Origin: an uncultured Bacteroidales bacterium
GTDB taxonomy: Bacteria; Bacteroidota; Bacteroidia; Bacteroidales; CAIWKO01
DNA length: 27,433 bases
Direction of reading: 5' to 3'
Assembly (NCBI GenBank): GCA_964473775.1
Contig: CAYYQJ010000001.1
Span: 1-27,433 of the forward strand
Shown here: in pieces, positions 2,533 to 18,694 of the stretch
How positions within the stretch are numbered: the first letter of the stretch is position 1
How the letters are laid out: each line of letters opens with the position of its first letter
The notes under the pieces: generated by a model
Seen by the model: only the letters and a program-made list of their open reading frames with translations
Database searches by the model: none
Told to the model about the DNA's origin: nothing
Position numbers and translations under genes: made by a program

Positions 2533-3057
2533 TTATTTAGCAAATTTCGCCATCCTAATGACGTTGTGCCAAGCTCCATTATAATAGAAATGATGTATAA
2601 ATTTACCTTCCTGAAGGAAGTCTAGATTACTGTAAAGTCTAATTGCATTAACATTACTCTCTAAAACATCCAAAGAAATTTTTTGTAAGCCCAACATATT
2701 GAAACCATAATCCAATCCAAGGTTCATAACTTCTTTACCCAATCCTAGTCCTCTTAAGTTTTTATTCCCTATTACTATACCTAAAAAGGCATGATTGTGT
2801 AGTTGATTAATTTCTCTTAGTTGAAAATAGCCAAAAAACTCTTTTGCTTCATTTAGTACAGCAGCAAAAATAATATTAGTATTATCTGTATTATTCAAGA
2901 TTTTATTGAGCCAATTTCGGTCTTGTTCCATTGTTACCAGATAGGGATGTGTAAGTGCCAAAAGCCTTAAATTCTTATCATTTCGCCATCCATGTATTAA
3001 ATCCAAATCCTCTAAAATCAGAGGTCTTAGATAAATTTTATCAGAATTCAGAACCAT
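2533..3057 (-). CDS. GNAT N-acyltransferase (RimJ/RimL, PseH-like)
   Basis: YLRPLILEDLDLIHGWRND N-terminus, acyl-CoA binding motif RGLGLGKE, and NVNAIRLYSNLDF. Confidence 0.85.
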   Translation of the reverse strand: MVLNSDKIYLRPLILEDLDLIHGWRNDKNLRLLALTHPYLVTMEQDRNWLNKILNNTDNTNIIFAAVLNEAKEFFGYFQLREINQLHNHAFLGIVIGNKNLRGLGLGKEVMNLGLDYGFNMLGLQKISLDVLESNVNAIRLYSNLDFLQEGKFIHHFYYNGAWHNVIRMAKFAK

Positions 3058-3058
3058 A

Positions 3059-4264
3059 CTATTCAGTTTTAATGTATTTTGATTTTATCAGACAGCTGAC
3101 CATTTCCGCTCTTTCTTTCACTTGCTCCAAATTTTCGCCAGATATTATTATGCACGCAGGTCTTTGACCACTATGTACAATCTCCTTTATTACATCGCCT
3201 GGTTTAATGAAAATATGAGCAAATATTATATCTCTTTCCAGTAACAAATCATTTATTGGCAATACTTCTATAACTTTTTTTCCTACAGGCAAATCGACAT
3301 ATTTGATGAAGGCATATTGCTTTTTGTCAGTATAGATATCTGGTTTAATACCTAAAGCAATTTGAACAGCAGCCTTATCCATATTAACTCCAGTAGATGT
3401 TTTTGTTAAATAGGATGATATAAAATCGCCCCCTAAACGAGCCCCAATTTCAACCACTTTAATAGAATCATTGGTGATTTTTAGTTCAGTATGAGTAGCG
3501 GTGTTATCTATTCCTAATGCATTAATTGCTTTTTTGGCAATCACTTCCATCTCATCTTTTTCTTTATTAGTAAGATTAGCTGGTTGTATATGACCCATTT
3601 CTACAGCTCTCGGATATGGAGTAATAATTTTTTCAGTAAATTGGACGATATGTGTATCCCCCTGAAAAGTAATTGCTTCAACGCTAAATTCACGACCATC
3701 AAGAAATTCTTCTATCAAACAATCTCTATTTGAAGAATAAACTGCGGTTTCTTTTGTATGTGAAATCAAATCTTCTAGTTTCTCTATCTTATAAACGCCT
3801 CTACTTGAATGGGAATCTATTGGTTTTATTATTAAAGGAAAAGATAATTTACTAGCCTGCAAAAACGCAGAATCAATAGTCACGAATTCATTAATTACCA
3901 CCCCGTGAGCACACGGCACCGCATTTTTAATAAACGCTTGCTTCATTAAGAATTTATTCCGACTTTTTGCAATAATCTCAGATGAATTAAAAATGCATCC
4001 TATTTCTTCAGCCAATCGTGCCATTAAATGAAGAGGATTCTCCATTTGAGCTGTGACAATCCCACCTACATTATGAGCATTAGCTATTCTCTTAGTAGAA
4101 TCATAATCATTACCCTCCACCTGATAATAGTAATCCGCATATTTTTTTCCTGGAGGATTAATCATTGGGTCGATAACAACGGTAACAACATTCAATTCTT
4201 TTGCAGCTTTTATTAGTTCCAATTGATTGATTCCAGCTCCAAATATCAAAATAGTCTTTCTCAT
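3059..4264 (-). CDS. ATP-grasp domain protein (putative amide-bond ligase)
   Basis: N-terminal ILIFGAG, then SRNKFLMKQAF, FPLIIKPIDSHSSRGV, LIEEFLDGREFSVE and VVEIGARLGG ATP-grasp motifs. Separated by 1 nt from the GNAT gene. Confidence 0.85.
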   Translation of the reverse strand: MRKTILIFGAGINQLELIKAAKELNVVTVVIDPMINPPGKKYADYYYQVEGNDYDSTKRIANAHNVGGIVTAQMENPLHLMARLAEEIGCIFNSSEIIAKSRNKFLMKQAFIKNAVPCAHGVVINEFVTIDSAFLQASKLSFPLIIKPIDSHSSRGVYKIEKLEDLISHTKETAVYSSNRDCLIEEFLDGREFSVEAITFQGDTHIVQFTEKIITPYPRAVEMGHIQPANLTNKEKDEMEVIAKKAINALGIDNTATHTELKITNDSIKVVEIGARLGGDFISSYLTKTSTGVNMDKAAVQIALGIKPDIYTDKKQYAFIKYVDLPVGKKVIEVLPINDLLLERDIIFAHIFIKPGDVIKEIVHSGQRPACIIISGENLEQVKERAEMVSCLIKSKYIKTE

Positions 4265-4368
4265 AAAACAAAAGGGTTCCTCTTACCTAGAATCACAACT
4301 TTTTCATAATGAATATTAAAAAAAAATTGTCATGAAACTGAAGTCTCTGAAGTTCCAGATTCAAAATA

Positions 4369-5556
4369 TTAATCAGGTTTGCTATATATTTTTTTAACGG
4401 CATCAATAACATCATCTGTTCCCTTTTTATTTAAGGAAGGATAAATAGGAAGCCTTAACAATCGGTTAAAAAAATTCATTGAACCAGGCATTTGATCATC
4501 AGTCGAAAGTTTCTCATAGAATTTGTTTCTATGTAAAGGTGTATAATGAACATTACTTAATACACCTTCAGCACGTAAAGCATCCATTATCCAATATTTA
4601 TCTTCTGGAGAAACTAAAATCCCAAAAAGATGCCAATTGTGTTGGCTATTTGAAGTTATTCGTAAAAAATCAAGTCCATCAATATTTGACAATCCCTTGA
4701 TATACTTTTCAGCAATATTATTTCTAGTTTTATTCATCCAATCCAACTTTAGGAGTTGTGTAACCCCCATAGCACCATTAATATTTGATTGTACATAAGA
4801 GTTGCCAATATCCACATATTCATAGTATCCTCTGGTTTTGTTGTCAGTAAGAAAAGAATACTTATCGGTTCCTTTTTCACGCAAAATTTTTACTCTTTCA
4901 GCAATTGCATCATTATTTGTTACTAAGGCACCTCCTTCACCAGTTGTCAGATTTTTTGTTCCATGAAAACTGAATGTAGAAATGTCTCCCTGACAACCGG
5001 TTTTCTTTCCTTTATAAAACGACCCAATTGACTGAGCTGTATCATGTACAACATATAAATTATATTTTTCGGCAATTGCCAATATTTCGTCCATTTCAGC
5101 AGGAATTCCTCCATAATCTACTGCGGCTATTGCAACAGTCTTAGAAGTAATATAACTTTCGAGTTTACTAACATCAAGGCTTCCATTATCCGGATAAACA
5201 TCAGCCAAAACTACATTAAGATTGTTATACATAGCAGCAATTGCTGTAGACGTATAAGTAAAATCAGGGCATATTACTTCACTTCCCACAGCAAAGTTCT
5301 TTACTCTAAAAGCAAGTTCTAATGCACTAGTGGCTGAGTTTACAAACAAAACGTGTTTCACTCCCAGATACTCTCCAAGCAGTTTTTCAAACAACCGACA
5401 CTCTGGGCCATCGCCTGAAAGGAAAGTACTTCTCATTGCTTTATCAACAGCAGCAAAATCACTTTCATCAAGATAGGGTTTATGAATGAGTATTGGTTCA
5501 ACTGAAACAGGTCTCCCTCCATTGATAGCAAGTGAAGGATTGTTTTTATTAAGCAT
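4369..5556 (-). CDS. DegT/DnrJ/EryC1/StrS PLP-dependent NDP-sugar aminotransferase, WecE/RffA-like
   Basis: VNSATSALE, VVHDTAQSIG, FSFHGTKNLTTGEGGAL (PLP lysine) and the REKGT..DIGNSY segment characteristic of WecE-like C4 aminotransferases. Confidence 0.9.
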   Translation of the reverse strand: MLNKNNPSLAINGGRPVSVEPILIHKPYLDESDFAAVDKAMRSTFLSGDGPECRLFEKLLGEYLGVKHVLFVNSATSALELAFRVKNFAVGSEVICPDFTYTSTAIAAMYNNLNVVLADVYPDNGSLDVSKLESYITSKTVAIAAVDYGGIPAEMDEILAIAEKYNLYVVHDTAQSIGSFYKGKKTGCQGDISTFSFHGTKNLTTGEGGALVTNNDAIAERVKILREKGTDKYSFLTDNKTRGYYEYVDIGNSYVQSNINGAMGVTQLLKLDWMNKTRNNIAEKYIKGLSNIDGLDFLRITSNSQHNWHLFGILVSPEDKYWIMDALRAEGVLSNVHYTPLHRNKFYEKLSTDDQMPGSMNFFNRLLRLPIYPSLNKKGTDDVIDAVKKIYSKPD

Positions 5557-5623
5557 TATTTTTTTTTGAAAATTTGTTAGCTATAGTTTATTTAAGAAAA
5601 TTTGAAGGATATAAACCGTAGGG

Positions 5624-6154
5624 TTATTTAATATCTCTCGCCTGCAAAATTGGATCTGAACATGGCCAGTTTATCCCTAGTTCTTTGTCATTCCACATAA
5701 TGGTCATTTGTTCGCCAGCATCCATATAATTGCCATCATAGGCAAGTTTGTAATGGAATACTGCAAAATCAGTTTCAACATAGTACCCATTAACAAAGCC
5801 AGGTGGAATAAGAACCTGTGAATATTCGTCAGAAGAAAGAACAAGGCTATCCCATTTTTTAAATGTGGGTGAATCGGGTCGCATATCGGCAACTACTTCA
5901 AAAAGTCGTCCCCATACACAGGAAACTAGTTTCCAAGTTTTATGATCGCCATGTAACCCTCGCAACACATTATACTTTGATTGTGCAAATTTATCATGCT
6001 TAAAATCCAGCTCTTTAGGAAGATTACTTTTATAGAAATCTTTATTGAAAGAAGAGTATATATTGCCTCTTAAATCCCAGGACACAGAAGGTTTAATAAT
6101 CAGTACCTCAGGGAAAACTAATGAAGCAGAAACTTCAATATCTTTATATGACAT
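5624..6154 (-). CDS. RmlC-fold (cupin) NDP-4-keto-6-deoxy-sugar 3(,5)-epimerase, resembling the Campylobacter Cj1430/MlghB/DdahB subgroup
   Basis: DLRG, NVLRGLHGD, VADMRPDSPTF and WND...GINWP...PIL motifs. FKHDKF, HGDxKTxKLV and an Asn (GFVNGY) where RmlC has His (GFAHGF) match my recollection of the GDP-sugar subgroup. Confidence 0.85.
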   Translation of the reverse strand: MSYKDIEVSASLVFPEVLIIKPSVSWDLRGNIYSSFNKDFYKSNLPKELDFKHDKFAQSKYNVLRGLHGDHKTWKLVSCVWGRLFEVVADMRPDSPTFKKWDSLVLSSDEYSQVLIPPGFVNGYYVETDFAVFHYKLAYDGNYMDAGEQMTIMWNDKELGINWPCSDPILQARDIK

Positions 6155-8377: not shown

Positions 8378-10873
8378 TTATTTTTTAATTTTTAACCACT
8401 TGCCTATAATGCCAAAACGATACTTCTGTTTTTTTTCGTCATCCGACTCATAAGCATAACCGTAGCCATAACCATAACCATAACCATAGCCATAACCATA
8501 GCCATAACCATAAGCATTTCGTAGTGGAACATCATTTATTATAATTACCGGCTGAGGTATGTGCCTGAATTGAATTCGGGATAAAAGATCCATAAATACA
8601 TTTTTACGGGTTTTTTTGATTCTTACGATGAATACATTCATATCACATTTTGACATCAAGATATTTGCATCAGTAACACTAATAGCCGGTGGAGAATCCA
8701 CAATAATTATGCTGAATCTTTCGCGTAAAATCGAGAGAAGATTGTCCATCATTTCCGAATCCAATAATTCAGAAGGATTGGGAGGTACAGTGCCGGAAGG
8801 TAAAACAAACAAATCAGGATTATCAGTTGGTGAAATCACCTCATCCAAAGTAGCTCGACTGGCAAGATATTCGCTAAGACCAGGTTTCTGCGACACATCA
8901 ATTATTTTATGAACCCTCCCCCTACGCATATCTGCTCCAATGATAATAGTTTTACGTCCTGCCATTGCAAAAGTGTATGCAATATTTACAGAAACAAAAG
9001 TTTTGCCACTTTCAGGCATATCGGAAGTTACCTGAATAATGTAAGACTTTTTGTTTCCAATAAAGAAACTGAGATTCGTTCGCAAATTTCTGAAACTTTC
9101 GCCAACTGATGAACGCGAAGATGTTAAAAATACTTTTTCCTCTTTCTCTTCATTATGCATGATATATCCTGCAATTGGGAAAGGAGCAATATCTTCCACT
9201 TCTCTGGAAAAGGTATAAGTATTCTTTAAGTACGAAGGCAGAAAAACAATGGCAATAGCTAATAAAAAGGCTAAAATTATTGCACTCATCATAATCACAC
9301 CCTTTTTAGGTGCAATTTGTACAATATTTTCAGATCTGCATGGATCGATAACCTGATTGTCGGGCATATTGGTAGCTGCCGTAATCTGAGATTCAGCTTT
9401 TTTCTGAAGAAGGAATATATAAAGCTGATTGTATAAATTATAGTCTCTTTCGAAATCAAGTAATTTTCTTTGATTGGTTGGAAGAGATGAAATTCTAGAG
9501 TTAACAGTATTGGCTCGATCCGTAATTTCATCAATAGCCATGTTACTTAATTTGATATTATTTTGAGAGTTTTCTAATATGCTTTTTCTGAGCTGCTCTA
9601 TTTGTGCATCCAGATATTGTAACGCAGGATTTCGGACAGTTGCGCTTTGACTTAATGAATTTCGTTCACCGTTTAGTTTTGCCAGATCGGCAATTAATCC
9701 CGTGGTAGCAGGATCTTCAATACCCATTGCAGAAGGAGATATAATGTAAAGAGGATCTTTATGTTTATCTAAATAATCTTTAAGATAAGCGTAGTACTTG
9801 TTTTTTAACTGTAATTGAGCTTTATTATTATCCAGATCTTTTATATGATCGAATACTCTCTGGGCCTCATCATCCAAATTAATAAATTTATTATCCTTGC
9901 GATATGATTCCAAATCGGATTCGGCACTGGTGAGTTGTTGGATTATATCCCCAAGTTCTTTATCAATAAAACTTATCGTACGATAGGCTACTTCGTTTTT
10001 TGTTTTTAAACCGGATTCTATATATTCAGAGGTCAAAGCATTTAAAAAGTCTTGTAATATATCGGGTTGATTATATCTGAAGGTAACTTTTAATACAGAG
10101 GAGGTTTTGCTGGTTGGTTCAACTGAAATGCCCGATTGAAATGAATTTACGAGCTGACTGAGGTTATTGAGTTTGAAACTTAGTTTTGAATTTTTGTAAG
10201 AATCAAGGTTGTCAGGTCCTTTAAATATTGTAAAAGTGAAATTTGGGGTAGTTATTACATCACCAAACTTATGCTCTTGTTCGTAAACAAAATTTGGAAC
10301 ATCAATAAGCTCATCAGCTTTTTTAAGATATCGATTGGTAGAGTATTTATACAAATAGCCACCATTTACCTCCGACTTAAGTTTGAATTTTTCAGGTCCT
10401 GTGAAATCAATAAAGAAAGTTGCTCCCGGTACCTGAGGTTTTGTGGTATCAATAACTACAATAAAGGGGCCATTAGTATAACTATTGTTGGTGCGCAACC
10501 GACCTTTTGCATAGTAAGAAACCTGCCAGGGAATACGTTTTAAAGCATTATAAGTTAAAGTGGCCGATTGCAATATGATTTGCTCATTTTCTACAGGCGA
10601 CTGGGTCTTGCCCATATTTAATCCTATCAGTGCCTGTGCATCCAGCACATTTTTTGATTTAGGATCTTTAAGCAAAATGGTGGTGCTGCCTTCGTAAATT
10701 CGGTCGGCTTTTTTCAGATAAACCCATGTTACAACTCCTGAAAGCATAAAAGCAAAGATAAGCACATACCATTTGGTTAGTAGTACAGCTAATAAAAGCC
10801 TGTAATCAAGGTTTTTGTTTTTCTGTGCTTTGCTATAATTATTTTGTGAGGAATGCTCGTTTGAAGAATCCAT
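8378..10873 (-). CDS. wzc: Polysaccharide co-polymerase / BY-kinase (Wzc)
   Basis: Two TM segments flanking a periplasmic coiled coil, ESFRNLRTNL, Walker A (PESGKT), A' (GADMRR), B (IIVDSPP), PPNPSELL and a C-terminal Tyr cluster. Confidence 0.95.
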   Translation of the reverse strand: MDSSNEHSSQNNYSKAQKNKNLDYRLLLAVLLTKWYVLIFAFMLSGVVTWVYLKKADRIYEGSTTILLKDPKSKNVLDAQALIGLNMGKTQSPVENEQIILQSATLTYNALKRIPWQVSYYAKGRLRTNNSYTNGPFIVVIDTTKPQVPGATFFIDFTGPEKFKLKSEVNGGYLYKYSTNRYLKKADELIDVPNFVYEQEHKFGDVITTPNFTFTIFKGPDNLDSYKNSKLSFKLNNLSQLVNSFQSGISVEPTSKTSSVLKVTFRYNQPDILQDFLNALTSEYIESGLKTKNEVAYRTISFIDKELGDIIQQLTSAESDLESYRKDNKFINLDDEAQRVFDHIKDLDNNKAQLQLKNKYYAYLKDYLDKHKDPLYIISPSAMGIEDPATTGLIADLAKLNGERNSLSQSATVRNPALQYLDAQIEQLRKSILENSQNNIKLSNMAIDEITDRANTVNSRISSLPTNQRKLLDFERDYNLYNQLYIFLLQKKAESQITAATNMPDNQVIDPCRSENIVQIAPKKGVIMMSAIILAFLLAIAIVFLPSYLKNTYTFSREVEDIAPFPIAGYIMHNEEKEEKVFLTSSRSSVGESFRNLRTNLSFFIGNKKSYIIQVTSDMPESGKTFVSVNIAYTFAMAGRKTIIIGADMRRGRVHKIIDVSQKPGLSEYLASRATLDEVISPTDNPDLFVLPSGTVPPNPSELLDSEMMDNLLSILRERFSIIIVDSPPAISVTDANILMSKCDMNVFIVRIKKTRKNVFMDLLSRIQFRHIPQPVIIINDVPLRNAYGYGYGYGYGYGYGYGYGYAYESDDEKKQKYRFGIIGKWLKIKK
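8450..8512 (-). repeat. Hexanucleotide repeat encoding (YG)9-YAY, the Wzc tyrosine cluster
   Basis: TAT/TAC-GGT/GGC repeated nine times, then TAT GCT TAT; 11 Tyr counted from the DNA. Confidence 0.95.
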
Positions 10874-13430: not shown

Positions 13431-14984
13431 TTATTGGTTATTGGATTGATTGTGTTGGTGTTTTAATTTGCGTTTTTCGTTTATATTGTGAGATACAGAT
13501 TTTATACGTTTTTCTAGAAAATGATGAAGTGGCTTGATTGTAGATGCCAATGTGATATTAAACAACATAAAAAGATAAGGACTCCCATGTATGAAAGGAT
13601 ATATCTTTGGATGAATGGCGGCTTCGAGAAACTGAAAAAACAACAACATTCCTATAAAGCTTATAAAATCAATAACTTTGCGAGAAATATTCATGCGACT
13701 TACAATAAAAAGTAAGCTAAATACAAATACAATTAAACAAAAAACTCCCAGATATTCCATCTGCTCTTTATGTTCAAAAGCTTTTTCTTCGCGTTCAGCT
13801 TCTGCCTTTTCTTCTGCTTCCTTTTTTTCAAATTCGTATTGCAATTTCAAATTATTAATCTTCTTAATACTCTCTTCATTTACTAGCTTTTCACGAGTGG
13901 CTATATACAGTTTATAGTTTGTAAATGCCCCGGCATAGTCGCCTAGTGCACTATCTATTGTCGAAATAGTACTATAACTCCCTTTTATGCCTTCAAGGCT
14001 GCCAATTTCTTTTGCTTGCGACAATGCTTTTTTCACATATTCGGAGGCTTCTTTGTATTTTTTTTGAAAAAGATAGACAAGGCTAATGTTTAGATTTGTT
14101 GTAGAAACCCCATTTTTGTCGCCTATTTCATCTTTTATTTTTAAAGCGGCCATTTGGTTTTTAAGAGCATCAGCATAATTTTGTTGGTTTTTATTAATTA
14201 TTCCGATATTGCCATAAGCATTTCCAATGCTTTGTTTATCGCCAATTTCTTCGCCAATTTTTAATGCAGTATTATAGCTATTTATTGCTTGGGGATAATT
14301 TAATTGTTCGGCATAGTTATTTCCAATGTTGAGACAAACAATAGCAATACCATGTTTATCATCCATTGCTTTACGGATTTTTAAGGCCTGATTCATATTC
14401 GTCAATGCTTCAGAATAATTGCCTTGTATTTCGTATACAATGCCTATGTTAAGAAAAGCTGAGGCACTTCCTATTTTATAATCAATTTCCTCATCAATTT
14501 TTAAACATGCAAAAAAATTTTTTAAAGCTTCGGGATAATTACCCTGCAAACGGAATAAATCACCCATATTGTTGTACGAACCTGCTATCCCCCTTTTATA
14601 GCCTATTTCTTGTCGTAGTTTTAAGGCTTTTTTATGAAATTCCAATGCTTTAAGGTAATCTCCAATTTCCTGATTTATCCACCCCAAACTGTTATAGGCG
14701 TTTCCCATACCTTTTTTATAACCTATTTTCTCGGATAGTTGAAGACATTGATTGGCATAATCTATGCCTTTTTGAGGGTTGTTGCCCCAATATTCTGTAG
14801 AAATTTCGTACAATACATCCGCTGTCATCGAATCTGCAATACCAGTTTTATTGTTTCTTAATTTAACTTTTTCGTTATCGAGTTTTTGCAAGCTATCAGT
14901 TAATTTTTTTATATAGGGCAAGTTTTGTGCGCTTGATGAAGACAATAAAAAGCCTAATGCTATTAGAAAAATAAGTTTTTTCAT
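13431..14984 (-). CDS. Signal peptide + TPR-repeat periplasmic domain + C-terminal multi-TM anchor
   Basis: Signal peptide MKKLIFLIALGFLLSSSSA|Q, ~40-aa TPR repeats (GIAGSYNNMGDLFRLQGNYPEALKNF and similar), a coiled coil, then about three hydrophobic segments; no enzymatic output domain. Confidence 0.88.
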   Translation of the reverse strand: MKKLIFLIALGFLLSSSSAQNLPYIKKLTDSLQKLDNEKVKLRNNKTGIADSMTADVLYEISTEYWGNNPQKGIDYANQCLQLSEKIGYKKGMGNAYNSLGWINQEIGDYLKALEFHKKALKLRQEIGYKRGIAGSYNNMGDLFRLQGNYPEALKNFFACLKIDEEIDYKIGSASAFLNIGIVYEIQGNYSEALTNMNQALKIRKAMDDKHGIAIVCLNIGNNYAEQLNYPQAINSYNTALKIGEEIGDKQSIGNAYGNIGIINKNQQNYADALKNQMAALKIKDEIGDKNGVSTTNLNISLVYLFQKKYKEASEYVKKALSQAKEIGSLEGIKGSYSTISTIDSALGDYAGAFTNYKLYIATREKLVNEESIKKINNLKLQYEFEKKEAEEKAEAEREEKAFEHKEQMEYLGVFCLIVFVFSLLFIVSRMNISRKVIDFISFIGMLLFFQFLEAAIHPKIYPFIHGSPYLFMLFNITLASTIKPLHHFLEKRIKSVSHNINEKRKLKHQHNQSNNQ

Positions 14985-15206: not shown

Positions 15207-15398
15207 TTATTGGTGTGTAAAGATATCCATTTTTTTGTTGCCCGAATTCATTTGTTTAAGATTTTTATTAAAAAATGGATTTGTTAAAATCTTACATACA
15301 TATACAACAAAAATCACTAGCATATAAATTGTGCCATTTTTTTCCTTATTAATGATACTAAAAAGATGATTTTTCAGCAAACCACTTAGTTTTTTCAT
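15207..15398 (-). CDS. Possible small hypothetical protein with one hydrophobic stretch
   Basis: 63-aa ORF with an MKK start and the hydrophobic segment IYMLVIFVVYVC; no homology recognised, so it may be spurious. Confidence 0.25.
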   Translation of the reverse strand: MKKLSGLLKNHLFSIINKEKNGTIYMLVIFVVYVCKILTNPFFNKNLKQMNSGNKKMDIFTHQ

Positions 15399-15520
15399 TA
15401 TTTTTATGCAATTTTACAGTATGCTTTATGTTGTTACAATTCATAGCTTTATAAATTTCTCTGATCGTTCAGCATGCTGAATGCTCGCGTAGAAAATTTG
15501 AACGATCGCTTTGAGAATAC

Positions 15521-15751
15521 CTAGGCTACCCTAGTGGGTAACTAAGCTAACCTAGAGGTTGACCAGGCTACCCTAGATGGTGACTAAGCTACCCTAGTTG
15601 GCGACTAAGCTACCCTAGAGGTTGACTAAGCTACCCTAGTGGGTGACTAAGCTGCCCTAGTGGGTGACTAAGCTGCCCTAGAGGTTGACCAAGCTAACCT
15701 AGTGGGTGACTAAGCTACCCTAGTACGTGACTAAGCTACCCTGGTGAGTAA
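15521..15751. repeat. 21-bp tandem array, 11 units plus a degenerate 12th (consensus CTAAGCTACCCTAGTGGGTGA)
   Basis: Units start at 15521, 15542, 15563 ... 15731 with an exact 21-bp period; the first 14 nt are well conserved and the next 5 nt vary. Confidence 0.97.
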
Positions 15752-15935
15752 CTAGGCGAGCCTAATTTCAAGGATAAATTTTGATGAACAAATGAATTAA
15801 CTGTTAATATTTCCTCATCATAATCCAACCTGCAATAACATTATAGATTCTTAATAAACCACCTGATTCAATAAATAATTTTCCGTAAAATTTTATTTAT
15901 TTCTAAATAATAATACGCGGTAACCGAAAAACACA

Positions 15936-15943
15936 TATATTTG
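15936..15943 (+). promoter_or_regulatory. Candidate -7 box (TATATTTG) upstream of the CheB/CheR fusion
   Basis: Matches TAnnTTTG about 110 nt before the ATG; no clear -33 TTTG. Confidence 0.35.
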
Positions 15944-16054: not shown

Positions 16055-18694
16055 ATGAAAGCAAAAACAAATACCAATGATGATTCAAACCCTTTAAAAC
16101 CCGACACCACTCATTTTCCCATAGTAGGCATAGGCGCTTCGGCCGGCGGATTGGAAGCTTTGGAGTTGTTTTTCGAAAATATGCCTTCCAACAGTGGGAT
16201 GGCTTTTGTGGTAATACAACATCTCGACCCAACGCATCCGGGCATCATGCCTGAGCTTATGCAGCGCATCACCTCTATGAAAGTATATCAGGCCGCCGAT
16301 GCACTTAAAGTAAAGCCCAATTGCGTATATGTGATACCTCCCAACCGCAGCCTCTCTATATTAAATGGCGCCCTTCAATTGTTCGAACCCATCGAAATGC
16401 GCGGGCTGCGTCTGCCTGTGGATATCTTTTTTAAATCTCTGGCCGAAGATTGTCGCGAAAAAAGCATAGGCATCATACTTTCGGGCATGGGCTCTGATGG
16501 CAGCCTGGGGCTAAAGGCAATTAAAGAACAAAACGGCATAGTGTTGGTGCAAGACCCTAAAACAGCTAAATTTGATAGCATGCCACGCAATGCCAAAGAT
16601 GCTGTGATACCCGATATAGTGGCTGCCGCCGAAGCTTTACCGGCCAAGTTGCTCGATTTTTTAAAATATGTTCCTGTAAGAAAAACAGAAATAGAACTCG
16701 ATAGCAAAACCAAAAGCAATCTCGACAAGATTATCATTTTAATAAGAGAAAAAACCGGACACGACTTTTCTCTTTACAAAAAGAATACCCTGTTTCGCCG
16801 AATAGATAGGCGCAAAGGAGTGCATCAAATAGATAAGATACAAAACTACGTAAGGTTTTTGCAAGAAAACCCCAAAGAACTCGACATACTGTTTAAAGAA
16901 CTGCTGATAGGCGTAACCAGTTTTTTTCGCGATGCAGCCGTGTGGAACTATTTTAAAGAACAAATTTTTCCGCAAATGATATCCGAAATGCCCGATGGAA
17001 GTTTATTACGTGCATGGATACCCGCCTGCTCAACAGGCGAAGAAGCCTATACCCTGGCTATTATTTTTGTTGAAATGATAGAAGCAGAAAAAAAGCGCAA
17101 AAACCTAAGTTTACAGATATTTGCAACCGACATAGACCTCGATGCCATCGAAAAAGCCCGACGTGGGATGTTTGCTGCAAACATAGCTGCCGATGTTTTG
17201 CCCGAACGACTCAGCCGTTTTTTTACTTCCGATGGCGAAGGCTATCGCATCAACAATATCATACGCGAAATGGTGGTGTTTGCACCGCAAAATGTGATAA
17301 AAGACCCGCCGTTTACCAAACTCGATATATTATCATGCCGCAATATGCTTATTTATATGGAGCCCGAATTGCAAAAAAAACTGATGGCATTGTTTAACTA
17401 TAGCCTCAATCCTGGAGGCATCATGCTGCTCGGAACCGCCGAAACTCTTGGAACCAACAAAATAGGGTTTACAGAACTTGATAGCAAACTAAAATTTTAC
17501 ATGCGTTCAGAAAAAGCGCTTCCGGCCGAAATGATTGATTTCCCCAGCTCGTTTTATAATCGCAAAACCGACACCACGGCCACCAAAATATCAACAAAAA
17601 TTTTCGAGAACATACAAAACATCACCGACAATATGTTGCTACAGCGTTATGCTCCCGCCAGTGTGTTGGTGAATGATAAAGGCGACATTGTATATATCAC
17701 AGGCCGTACCGGAAAATACCTCGAACCCGTAGCAGGCAAAGCCAACTGGAATATATACTCTATGGCTCGCGAAGGCCTGCGACACGAACTTCCCGGAGCT
17801 TTTCGCAAGGTGATGCAAAATTTCGAACCCGTAAATCTGTATAATCTGAAAATAGGCACCAACGGCGGAACACAATATATTGATGTTACTTTACAACGGC
17901 TCGATAGTCCTATCACAATTAAAGGGATGATAATAGTAGTGTTTAAAGATGCCTCACCAGCTTCTGAACATGATTTGCCAGATGGAAGCCGCCAAAAACG
18001 AATCTCAACCGCCCAGCAGAAAGTGATGGAAATAGATTTGCAGCGTCACAAAGAAGAAATACAATCCATACGCGAAGAAATGCAAACCTCGCAAGAGGAA
18101 CTTAAATCAACCAACGAAGAACTACAATCAACCAACGAAGAACTGCAATCAACCAACGAAGAACTCACCACCTCTAAAGAAGAAATGCAAAGTCTGAACG
18201 AAGAACTACAAACGGTTAACCTCGAATTGCAAAGCAAAGTAAACGATTTTGTACAGGCCAATAACGATATGAAAAACCTGCTCAACAGCACCGAAATCGC
18301 AACTCTTTTCCTCGATAGAGATATGAACATACGGCGCTTTACTGATTCGGTAACCATGTTGTTTAAGCTCCGCAATACCGACATCGGCCGCCCGATTACC
18401 GATTTGGTAACCGATTTGCAATACCCCGACATAGATGACCATGCACGCAGAGTTCTTAAAACTCTGATTTCGGTTGAAACAGAAATAACCACCAAAAACA
18501 ATTTGTGGTTTACCATTCGAATCATGCCCTACCGCACCCACGACGACCGCATAGATGGCCTTGTGATTACATTTAACGATATTACCAAATATAAAAAACT
18601 GGAAAACGAACTCACCAAAGCAAACGAAGCCCTGAAGGCAGCAAAAGCAGAACACGACCTCACACATATTATTAAAAATAAAAAGGAAAAATAA
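16055..18694 (+). CDS. CheB methylesterase-CheR methyltransferase-PAS-coiled coil-PAS fusion
   Basis: CheB triad motifs GIGASAGG (Ser), IQHLDP (His) and SGMGSDG (Asp); CheR motifs WIPACSTGEEAYT, FATDID and SCRNMLIY; ELQSTNEE coiled coil; C-terminal PAS. No receiver or kinase domain. Confidence 0.93.
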   Translation: MKAKTNTNDDSNPLKPDTTHFPIVGIGASAGGLEALELFFENMPSNSGMAFVVIQHLDPTHPGIMPELMQRITSMKVYQAADALKVKPNCVYVIPPNRSLSILNGALQLFEPIEMRGLRLPVDIFFKSLAEDCREKSIGIILSGMGSDGSLGLKAIKEQNGIVLVQDPKTAKFDSMPRNAKDAVIPDIVAAAEALPAKLLDFLKYVPVRKTEIELDSKTKSNLDKIIILIREKTGHDFSLYKKNTLFRRIDRRKGVHQIDKIQNYVRFLQENPKELDILFKELLIGVTSFFRDAAVWNYFKEQIFPQMISEMPDGSLLRAWIPACSTGEEAYTLAIIFVEMIEAEKKRKNLSLQIFATDIDLDAIEKARRGMFAANIAADVLPERLSRFFTSDGEGYRINNIIREMVVFAPQNVIKDPPFTKLDILSCRNMLIYMEPELQKKLMALFNYSLNPGGIMLLGTAETLGTNKIGFTELDSKLKFYMRSEKALPAEMIDFPSSFYNRKTDTTATKISTKIFENIQNITDNMLLQRYAPASVLVNDKGDIVYITGRTGKYLEPVAGKANWNIYSMAREGLRHELPGAFRKVMQNFEPVNLYNLKIGTNGGTQYIDVTLQRLDSPITIKGMIIVVFKDASPASEHDLPDGSRQKRISTAQQKVMEIDLQRHKEEIQSIREEMQTSQEELKSTNEELQSTNEELQSTNEELTTSKEEMQSLNEELQTVNLELQSKVNDFVQANNDMKNLLNSTEIATLFLDRDMNIRRFTDSVTMLFKLRNTDIGRPITDLVTDLQYPDIDDHARRVLKTLISVETEITTKNNLWFTIRIMPYRTHDDRIDGLVITFNDITKYKKLENELTKANEALKAAKAEHDLTHIIKNKKEK
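18105..18165 (+). repeat. Coding 21-bp tandem repeat (x3) giving the (L-K/Q-STNEE)n heptads
   Basis: AATCAACCAACGAAGAACT is identical at 18105, 18126 and 18147. Confidence 0.95.

Follow-up and report, generated by a model that had tools for sequence, protein, structure and literature searches.

What does a 21-bp tandem repeat, whose step is close to two turns of the DNA helix, do in the promoter region between two bacterial signalling genes, and does its length mean anything at all? The question is raised by an array of eleven such units in a 27,433-bp contig of an uncultured Bacteroidales bacterium (GenBank assembly GCA_964473775.1, contig CAYYQJ010000001.1), which we analysed over its whole length and refer to as the window. 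The contig comes from a freshwater metagenome assembly, has a GC content of about 34% and carries this single array in its only long intergenic gap, 1,070 bp between a TPR gene on the minus strand to the left and a CheB-CheR-PAS fusion gene on the plus strand to the right, thus indeed between divergent signalling genes as the original prediction, made from the sequence alone, had described it. Our comparison with relatives shows that the array is one private member of a period-locked class of minisatellites in uncultured freshwater Bacteroidota. In this class the unit is always 21 bp and often organised in blocks of 42 or 63 bp, the sequence is different at every locus and the arrays lie in long intergenic regions that bear promoters. 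The period is the only feature common to the class.

The class was defined on 80 loci anchored on homologues of the CheB-CheR-PAS protein and taken from GTDB representative genomes, mostly metagenome-assembled genomes of uncultured freshwater Bacteroidales. These 1.27 Mb were searched throughout with Tandem Repeats Finder (TRF), and arrays of at least 100 bp were counted, leaving out a coding repeat of EELQSTN heptads that lies within the CheB-CheR-PAS gene. The first three homologue loci contained two further non-coding 21-bp arrays with a higher order of 42 or 63 bp, each with its own sequence. Over the complete set there are ten independent non-coding arrays with a period of 21, 42 or 63 bp and unrelated units, found in the window, L002, L003, L009, L011, L015, L023, L049 (two arrays) and L075, together with an additional shorter array of the same period class in L064. 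The same loci hold about ten non-coding arrays of other long periods. Against uniform periods between 12 and 70 bp the excess at 21, 42 and 63 bp has a binomial p of about 1e-8, which, like all our enrichment statistics, rests on rough calls of open reading frames (ORFs). The arrays of the class have about 5 to 14 units, or about 21 in the one that is split by an insertion sequence, and TRF reported no indels in most of them. Array-bearing loci are lower in GC than the others, with a median of 39% vs 42%. The suggestion that the two-turn period is a meaningful feature is strengthened by these data, since non-coding arrays of unrelated sequence repeat the 21-bp step, in several cases upstream of the CheB-CheR-PAS gene, and this recurrence favours a reading in which the arrays act at the level of DNA and depend on helical phase. 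A full-text search of the literature returned no description of a 21-bp period rule.

The position of the arrays relative to genes also shows a modest enrichment. Six of them, including that of the window, lie less than 1 kb upstream of the CheB-CheR-PAS gene (five among about 74 in the relatives; Fisher p=0.007, or 0.02 without the window), and the remaining arrays flank genes for PAS histidine kinases. In L003 an IS3-like insertion splits the array, which directly precedes the CheB-CheR-PAS gene, the L002 array is elsewhere in its locus, and L049 has two unrelated arrays less than 4 kb apart. No conserved flank or shared leader accompanies the arrays across species. The insertion within the L003 array could be delimited: the IS3-like element occupies 3822-5552, with orfA at 3860-4234 and orfB, which contains an rve domain, at 4249-5142, TGTCTTATACTGAAATAGCTTGACA and TGTCAAGTTATTTCAGGAAGGGACA form its terminal inverted repeats, and the array continues in register on both sides of it (3664-3821 and 5543-5842).

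How an array behaves at one orthologous site can be seen in L011 and L015, which are syntenic with a DNA identity of 79% in the left flank and 88-91% in the right flank. They share an orthologous divergent gene of 257 and 260 amino acids (56% amino acid identity, with a highly conserved C-terminal third) that matches no family in Pfam or NCBIfam. Both 21-bp arrays begin exactly 90 nt upstream of the ATG of this gene (L011 8999-9088; L015 2171-2260), and the two 90-nt segments can still be aligned. The units themselves are not alignable, that of L011 consisting of CTGCCTTAAGGC followed by nine variable bases and that of L015 being GAAAAAGTACTTTCGCTGAGA. Judged from this alignment, the array, its position and its period have persisted while the sequence was replaced, and what is conserved between the two arrays is the step. 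The remainder of the intergenic region is equally unalignable, so that replacement of the array need not have outpaced ordinary non-coding divergence.

In the window the array and its immediate continuation are as follows.

15521-15751, unstranded: tandem array of eleven 21-bp units with the consensus CTAAGCTACCCTAGTGGGTGA (TRF, core search and unit table)
15752-15772, unstranded: possible decayed twelfth unit, CTAGGCGAGCCTAATTTCAAG, in register and matching 11 of 21 consensus positions

TRF places the array at 15521-15754 with a period of 21, 11.1 copies, 83% matches, 0% indels and a score of 300, and finds a higher-order period of 63 bp, corresponding to blocks of three units, at 88% matches. 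Both edges are sharp when the TRF boundaries are applied. The GC content is 51% in the array vs 27% in its flanks, and the unit has no 7-nt sub-period, its strongest harmonics being at about 4-5 nt. The 14-nt core, CTAAGCTACCCTAG, gave 11 matches at up to two mismatches when searched over the window, all of them in register within the array, where 0.11 would be expected by chance. The units differ from the consensus by 24 mismatches, all substitutions and no indels, and 13 of these fall within columns 15-19. A conserved 14-nt core beside a variable 5-nt block had been proposed from inspection; the core is present in 11 of 11 units and the six variants listed for the block all occur, but the clustering of changes in the block, with a permutation p of 0.02 on mismatch counts, drops to p=0.22 when distinct mutational events are counted, because blocks of three units were duplicated. 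Short hairpins form in only a few units, in agreement with the earlier description of pairing that most variants break.

The consensus had been singled out for a stop codon in every reading frame, and this extends to the array as a whole, in which all six frames are closed by 9-12 stops each. Such closure was found in only 0.06-0.18% of random 21-mers of matched composition. It arises because CTA recurs at unit positions 1, 6 and 11, a 5-nt sub-period that puts TAG into the three minus frames, and because the plus strand supplies TAA, TAG and TGA. Most sister arrays keep frames open, typically one to five, so the closure is peculiar to the window array and is no property of the class, and the idea of a translation-proof spacer is not supported for the class. 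CTAG was counted in 10 of the 11 units, as stated originally, and this tetramer, described there as often scarce in bacteria, is scarce in the surrounding DNA: the array holds 11 of the 43 CTAG sites of the window, the rest of which has 32 vs about 89 expected from base composition, an under-representation of about 2.8-fold.

That the array is no assembly artefact follows from its identity across independently assembled data of three studies. With 0 differences it is present in Logan contigs of the source run X1, of X3 from another study (whole array, 15490-15849) and of X5 from a third study (15607-15794, part of the array). In a check for copy-number variation, which had been suggested, no difference was seen among X1, X3 and X5, at a depth of 3-8x and in assembler contigs, which drop rare variants. 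The sequence is private to this place. The core search gave no second copy in the window, a degenerate two-unit pattern had no match in 185,579 GTDB species-representative genomes, JGI metagenomes and IMG/VR viral contigs, the array with its flanks had no blastn match in PLSDB plasmids, and no other contig of X1 matches the array at 80% or more. The array could have been a unique minisatellite absent from the orthologous position in relatives; its sequence is unique, but some relatives have a different 21-bp array at that position. No inverted repeats bracket the array, the best pairs around it being AT-rich chance matches.

The gene content of the window looks chromosomal, and the names of its best homologous proteins place the contig in Bacteroidota. 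On the minus strand a capsule-type polysaccharide locus, with a flippase, sugar-modifying enzymes, Wzz/BY-kinase, Wza and a NusG-like gene, is followed by three more genes, the last of which encodes the TPR membrane protein. The plus strand carries the CheB-CheR-PAS fusion gene, a DUF559 gene, a gene for a PAS hybrid histidine kinase and one for a 1567-aa protein without a family match. Around the array we annotated the following features.

13431-14984, minus strand: TPR-repeat protein of 517 aa with a C-terminal membrane segment (Pfam), its ATG 536 bp from the array
15207-15398, minus strand: AT-rich ORF of 63 aa from the source gene caller, between the TPR gene and the array, without a family match in NCBIfam
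15463-15507, unstranded: hairpin element adjoining the array on the left, its 9-bp stem GATCGTTCA / TGAACGATC surrounding the palindrome GTTCAGCATGCTGAA at 15467-15481 (sequence and palindrome search)
15936-15943, plus strand: TATATTTG, a box of the Bacteroidota -7 type, TAnnTTTG (pattern search; consensus match only)
16055-18694, plus strand: fusion of CheB methylesterase, CheR methyltransferase and PAS, 879 aa (Pfam), its ATG 300 bp from the array
18073-18211, plus strand: coding 21-bp repeat of EELQSTN heptads inside the CheB-CheR-PAS gene (TRF and translation)

A homologue search of the protein database with the TPR protein gave 49% identity at best and thus no close orthologue, and synteny on the TPR side is not conserved in relatives. 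The 63-aa ORF is probably not a real gene. The TATATTTG box is the only -7-type box of the intergenic region; with 182 bp separating it from the array on its upstream side and 112 bp from the ATG of the CheB-CheR-PAS gene on its downstream side, it is a candidate promoter for this gene. The EELQSTN repeat is found between the CheR and PAS domains in every CheB-CheR-PAS homologue, in 3-8 copies depending on the species, and is unrelated in sequence to the intergenic array. Part of the left flank (15483-15519) has a second, diverged copy elsewhere in the same organism with no array after it; this copy is on a separate Logan contig, present at equal depth in X1, X2 and X3, and shows 5 differences in 37 nt and different continuations. 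The hairpin-bearing flank as a whole, 15463-15519, may be a small dispersed hairpin repeat.

Repeats of other kinds were also seen in the window and in the comparison loci. At 8449-8517 of the window the hexamer CATAAC is repeated 11.5 times and gives the Wzz/GNVR/AAA_31 protein a C-terminal run of YG dipeptides (YGYGYGYGYGYGYGYGY); this run is the tyrosine cluster of the BY-kinase, so slippage of the repeat could alter the number of phosphorylatable tyrosines. Heptanucleotide tandem arrays occur at the 3' end of the CheB-CheR-PAS gene or just beyond it in L006 (TTCAAGG x13, 9942-10041) and in L085 (AGGCAAT and GCCTAAT, 2960-3172); they resemble repeats of the STRR type and form a second repeat class in the lineage. 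In L090 (201-1379) and L091 (196-523), where the CheB-CheR-PAS protein is 77% identical to that of the window, tandem repeats of 128-129 bp in 2.6-3.6 copies lie upstream and there is no 21-bp array. Finally, hairpin repeats of 46/47 bp (up to 4 tandem copies, 97% identity) flank on either side the DUF559 gene that follows the CheB-CheR-PAS gene in L003, at 8780-8868 and 9244-9432.

The array is non-coding DNA. Among the 16 window genes that are long or supported by Pfam, 15 end at full family length in TAA (13) or TAG (2), and both codons are true stops here because the window's own genes end in them. As for a known RNA, Rfam gave no match, its only hit being a chance microRNA model (E=0.82, 20 bits vs a gathering score of 71), and three metatranscriptomes of the source sample, of about 55-58 million letters each, contained nothing from this organism. 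Searches of the window proteins against Pfam and NCBIfam found no Rep, Par, Cas, LytTR or other recognisable DNA-binding gene in the 27 kb, and sites resembling DnaA boxes are fewer in the window than expected by chance, without clustering. A CRISPR array, with unique spacers of about 26-72 bp between its repeats, was rejected, as the units are contiguous, only the 5-nt block varies and there are no cas domains in the window. A plasmid or phage iteron, which the original prediction had offered as a likeness, fared no better: there is no initiator gene, no cluster of DnaA boxes, no recognisable DNA-binding gene nearby and no plasmid or phage context in this chromosomal-looking stretch, and the two-turn spacing of 21 bp alone fits.

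How then could a step be kept when the sequence is not? Our tentative preference is for a DNA scaffold in the divergent promoter region, with its sites on the same face of the helix and read by a protein that recognises their spacing. Units two turns apart would offer equivalent sites on one helix face, and a protein that recognises the distance between sites far more than their letters could bind the array cooperatively or wrap it. The scaffold so formed would organise or insulate the promoters of the TPR gene to the left and of the CheB-CheR-PAS operon to the right. The blocks of 63 bp suggest that the array would have grown and been homogenised by in-register unequal exchange, and the step of 21 bp would be held by selection on helical phase because the array would work as DNA. 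Unequal exchange keeps any period that an array happens to have, and variants of 20 or 22 bp should spread by it equally well, yet they are absent, which suggests that phase is selected or that arrays are continually made by a process measuring 21 nt. We lean towards the same-face scaffold because the arrays concentrate in promoter regions and persist at an orthologous site, and because the array of the window is GC-rich and stable within AT-rich DNA.

A number of observations weigh against the scaffold. In the Bolshoy-Trifonov dinucleotide wedge model, arrays of 21-mers are more coherently curved than those of 17-, 20- or 22-mers in general, as geometry predicts, but the natural units are no more bent than shuffled ones (mean percentile 0.55, 10 arrays). 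Over the same number of arrays neither dyad symmetry within units (combined p=0.87) nor a 10.5-bp AT/GC harmonic (combined p=0.16) is enriched. An apparent polarity of the edges, in which the distal end was sharp and the end nearer the CheB-CheR-PAS gene decayed, was an artefact of register and is gone with the TRF boundaries. The closest relatives of the CheB-CheR-PAS protein, at 75-77% identity, have other upstream neighbours and no 21-bp array upstream. No binding protein was identified, no recognisable DNA-binding gene lies near the array in the 27-kb window, and the enrichment upstream of the CheB-CheR-PAS gene is modest and weak and depends on crude ORF calls. A purely mutational process that measures length, moreover, explains the locking of the period equally well. 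One layout did recur, that of a core plus a spacer, which is significant in L011 (p=0.0004) and in the right half of the L003 array (p=0.003), is also seen in the first L049 array and reaches a combined p of 1e-4, with p=0.06 in the window, values that are inflated by block duplication.

That mutational process is the main rival. The array would then be the by-product of a lineage-specific duplication in quanta of 21 nt, expanded by unequal exchange and without a function at the locus; some activity of replication, repair or integration would copy arbitrary DNA in such quanta, for instance by fill-in of staggered cuts 21 nt apart or by slippage of constant footprint. We consider this unlikely, though it is to be taken seriously. 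It accounts for unrelated units with nothing but the period in common, for the lack of shared curvature, dyads or 10.5-bp phasing, for two unrelated arrays within 4 kb in L049 and for the persistence of the L003 array in spite of an insertion sequence inside it. To our knowledge, however, there is no candidate for an enzyme duplicating DNA in steps of 21 nt, and none was found here. The process alone would also leave unexplained why arrays are kept at the same site in the sole syntenic pair, why the window array is identical across three samples and studies, why a GC-rich array persists in AT-rich DNA and why arrays concentrate in promoter regions, and without selection on phase units of 20 or 22 bp should spread, when TRF shows no indels in most arrays. 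As a further alternative, the array of the window would be an ordinary one-off variable-number tandem repeat (VNTR) made by slippage, with a 21-bp unit by coincidence and no connection to the arrays of the relatives. A sequence unique to the locus, closest CheB-CheR-PAS relatives that lack an array on the orthologous side and a TPR side without conserved synteny all agree with such an origin, which we nevertheless regard as very unlikely, given that a period of 21, 42 or 63 bp is found in 10 of the roughly 20 non-coding arrays with long periods (p about 1e-8), that no variation in copy number was seen in three samples and that the register is strict despite a unit divergence of 17%.

The remaining alternatives give the sequence of the unit a role of its own. 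In an operator array one dedicated regulator would bind direct repeats 21 bp apart and control the TPR gene, the CheB-CheR-PAS operon or both, on the model of LytTR-type response regulators, plasmid iterons or centromere-operators of the ParR/omega type. The conserved 14-nt core with its variable 5-nt block, the core-plus-spacer layout in some sister arrays (L011 and the right half of L003, at the combined p given above), the divergent promoter region and the equivalence of 21-bp spacing with the 9+12 layout of LytTR operators, as generally known, are what such a regulator would lead one to expect, but there is no DNA-binding gene in the surrounding 27 kb and no single copy of the core elsewhere in the window, eleven sites are far beyond the number in known operators of the type, block duplication inflates the clustering statistics (window p=0.22 on distinct events), dyads are not enriched and many unrelated arrays per genome would need as many regulators, which together make it improbable. 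We judge it very unlikely that the array yields a repeat RNA, such as a structured leader or a sponge that takes up an RNA-binding protein. The RNA of the minus strand of 15440-15800 does fold far better than shuffled sequences (z = -5.9), which that of the plus strand does not (z = -1.6), and a hairpin stands at the end of the array where transcription of the minus strand would finish. Good folding is expected of any tandem repeat with partial palindromes, though, and neither an Rfam match nor a minus-strand promoter motif facing the array was found; most units have broken hairpins without compensating changes, and the sister arrays have no structure in common. As to protein, reading TAA and TAG as glutamine in frame +2 would give heptads of the QATLVGD type, and T/C changes convert TAA/TAG into CAA/CAG in two units. 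For practical purposes the stop codons of the flanking genes already refute this recoded heptad protein, since 15 of 16 window genes reach full family length and stop there at TAA or TAG; between its two TGA codons the frame is only 133 codons long, T-to-C is an ordinary transition found in 2 of 11 units, and no such pattern is seen in the sister arrays.

Leaving these alternatives aside, the same-face scaffold and the duplication in 21-nt quanta lead us to speculate on a dedicated two-turn ruler in this clade of freshwater Bacteroidota, either an enzyme that duplicates DNA in 21-nt quanta or an abundant architectural protein with a 21-bp footprint, which would make and maintain arrays of any sequence in promoter-bearing intergenic regions. 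Such a ruler is a doubtful proposal at present. With it the array of the window would be one product among others, and L011 and L015 would show its signature in their combination of same site, same period and new sequence. One minisatellite in a bacterium is nothing unusual by itself, and what matters here is that repeat length obeys a rule, being fixed at two turns of the helix in unrelated sequences, at unrelated loci and across species; we know of nothing in bacterial genome biology that predicts such a length rule. If the rule reflects selection, it would point to an unrecognised architecture of promoter regions built from spacing alone, and if it reflects mutation, to an undescribed DNA transaction that measures length. 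The window array provides a clean case, being GC-rich in AT-rich DNA, closed in all frames, single-copy and stable across samples, and the pair of L011 and L015 adds one orthologous instance showing that an array can persist at its site while its sequence is replaced.

Several known systems resemble the array in part. Bacterial VNTRs, such as the mycobacterial MIRU, are intergenic non-coding repeats of 10-100 bp that evolve by unequal exchange or slippage, and the VNTR loci of one genome have assorted unit lengths and copy numbers that vary between strains. The window array is likewise a non-coding tandem repeat in intergenic DNA, but in its class the unit length is fixed across unrelated loci and genomes, and no difference in its own copy number was seen among three samples. 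In the iterons of phage origins and of plasmids with theta replication (R6K, pSC101, RK2, P1), a single protein binds cooperatively to direct repeats that measure about 17-22 bp and follow one another at about two turns of the helix. The window units are also contiguous direct repeats of 21 bp, or about two turns, and differ in that eleven spacer-less units are more than usual and that the period recurs at many unrelated chromosomal loci in relatives. LytTR-type operators (AgrA, ComE, PlnC) consist of two or three 9-bp direct repeats separated by 12 bp. They match the array in the centre-to-centre spacing of 21 bp, in the succession of core and variable spacer and in the location close to promoters and beside signalling genes, whereas the window has eleven units and no LytTR gene. 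Arrays bound by ribbon-helix-helix proteins of the ParR, ParG or omega type are cooperatively coated and have a sequence private to each system, and they require an adjacent gene for a small DNA-binding protein and a partition ATPase. With these the array has in common the tandem direct repeats upstream of an operon, but the window contains neither the small DNA-binding gene nor the ATPase.

Closer in lineage or in habit are repeats that are defined by their unit length. Heptanucleotide direct repeats are known as STRR in cyanobacteria and as the TAACTGA repeats of Beggiatoaceae (PMC4679880). These are abundant intergenic direct repeats with a unit length fixed within a lineage, and heptamers also adjoin CheB-CheR-PAS genes in L006 and L085; they differ from the array in their 7-nt unit, of which the window unit shows no trace as a sub-period, and in the recurrence of one sequence throughout the genome. 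The closest published element is BrickBuilt of Porphyromonas gingivalis, a 23-nt minisatellite and miniature inverted-repeat transposable element with 19 copies per genome that belong to one sequence family (Klein et al. 2015, PMC4596501). It has leader and tail subunits with inverted-repeat ends and shows promoter activity (PMC4596501). Like the window array it is an element of Bacteroidota with spacer-less tandem units of about 22 nt, always intergenic, tens to hundreds of bp from genes and near promoters. Unlike BrickBuilt, the array of the window is private and single-copy and is without terminal inverted repeats, and what it shares with its sister arrays is the period only.

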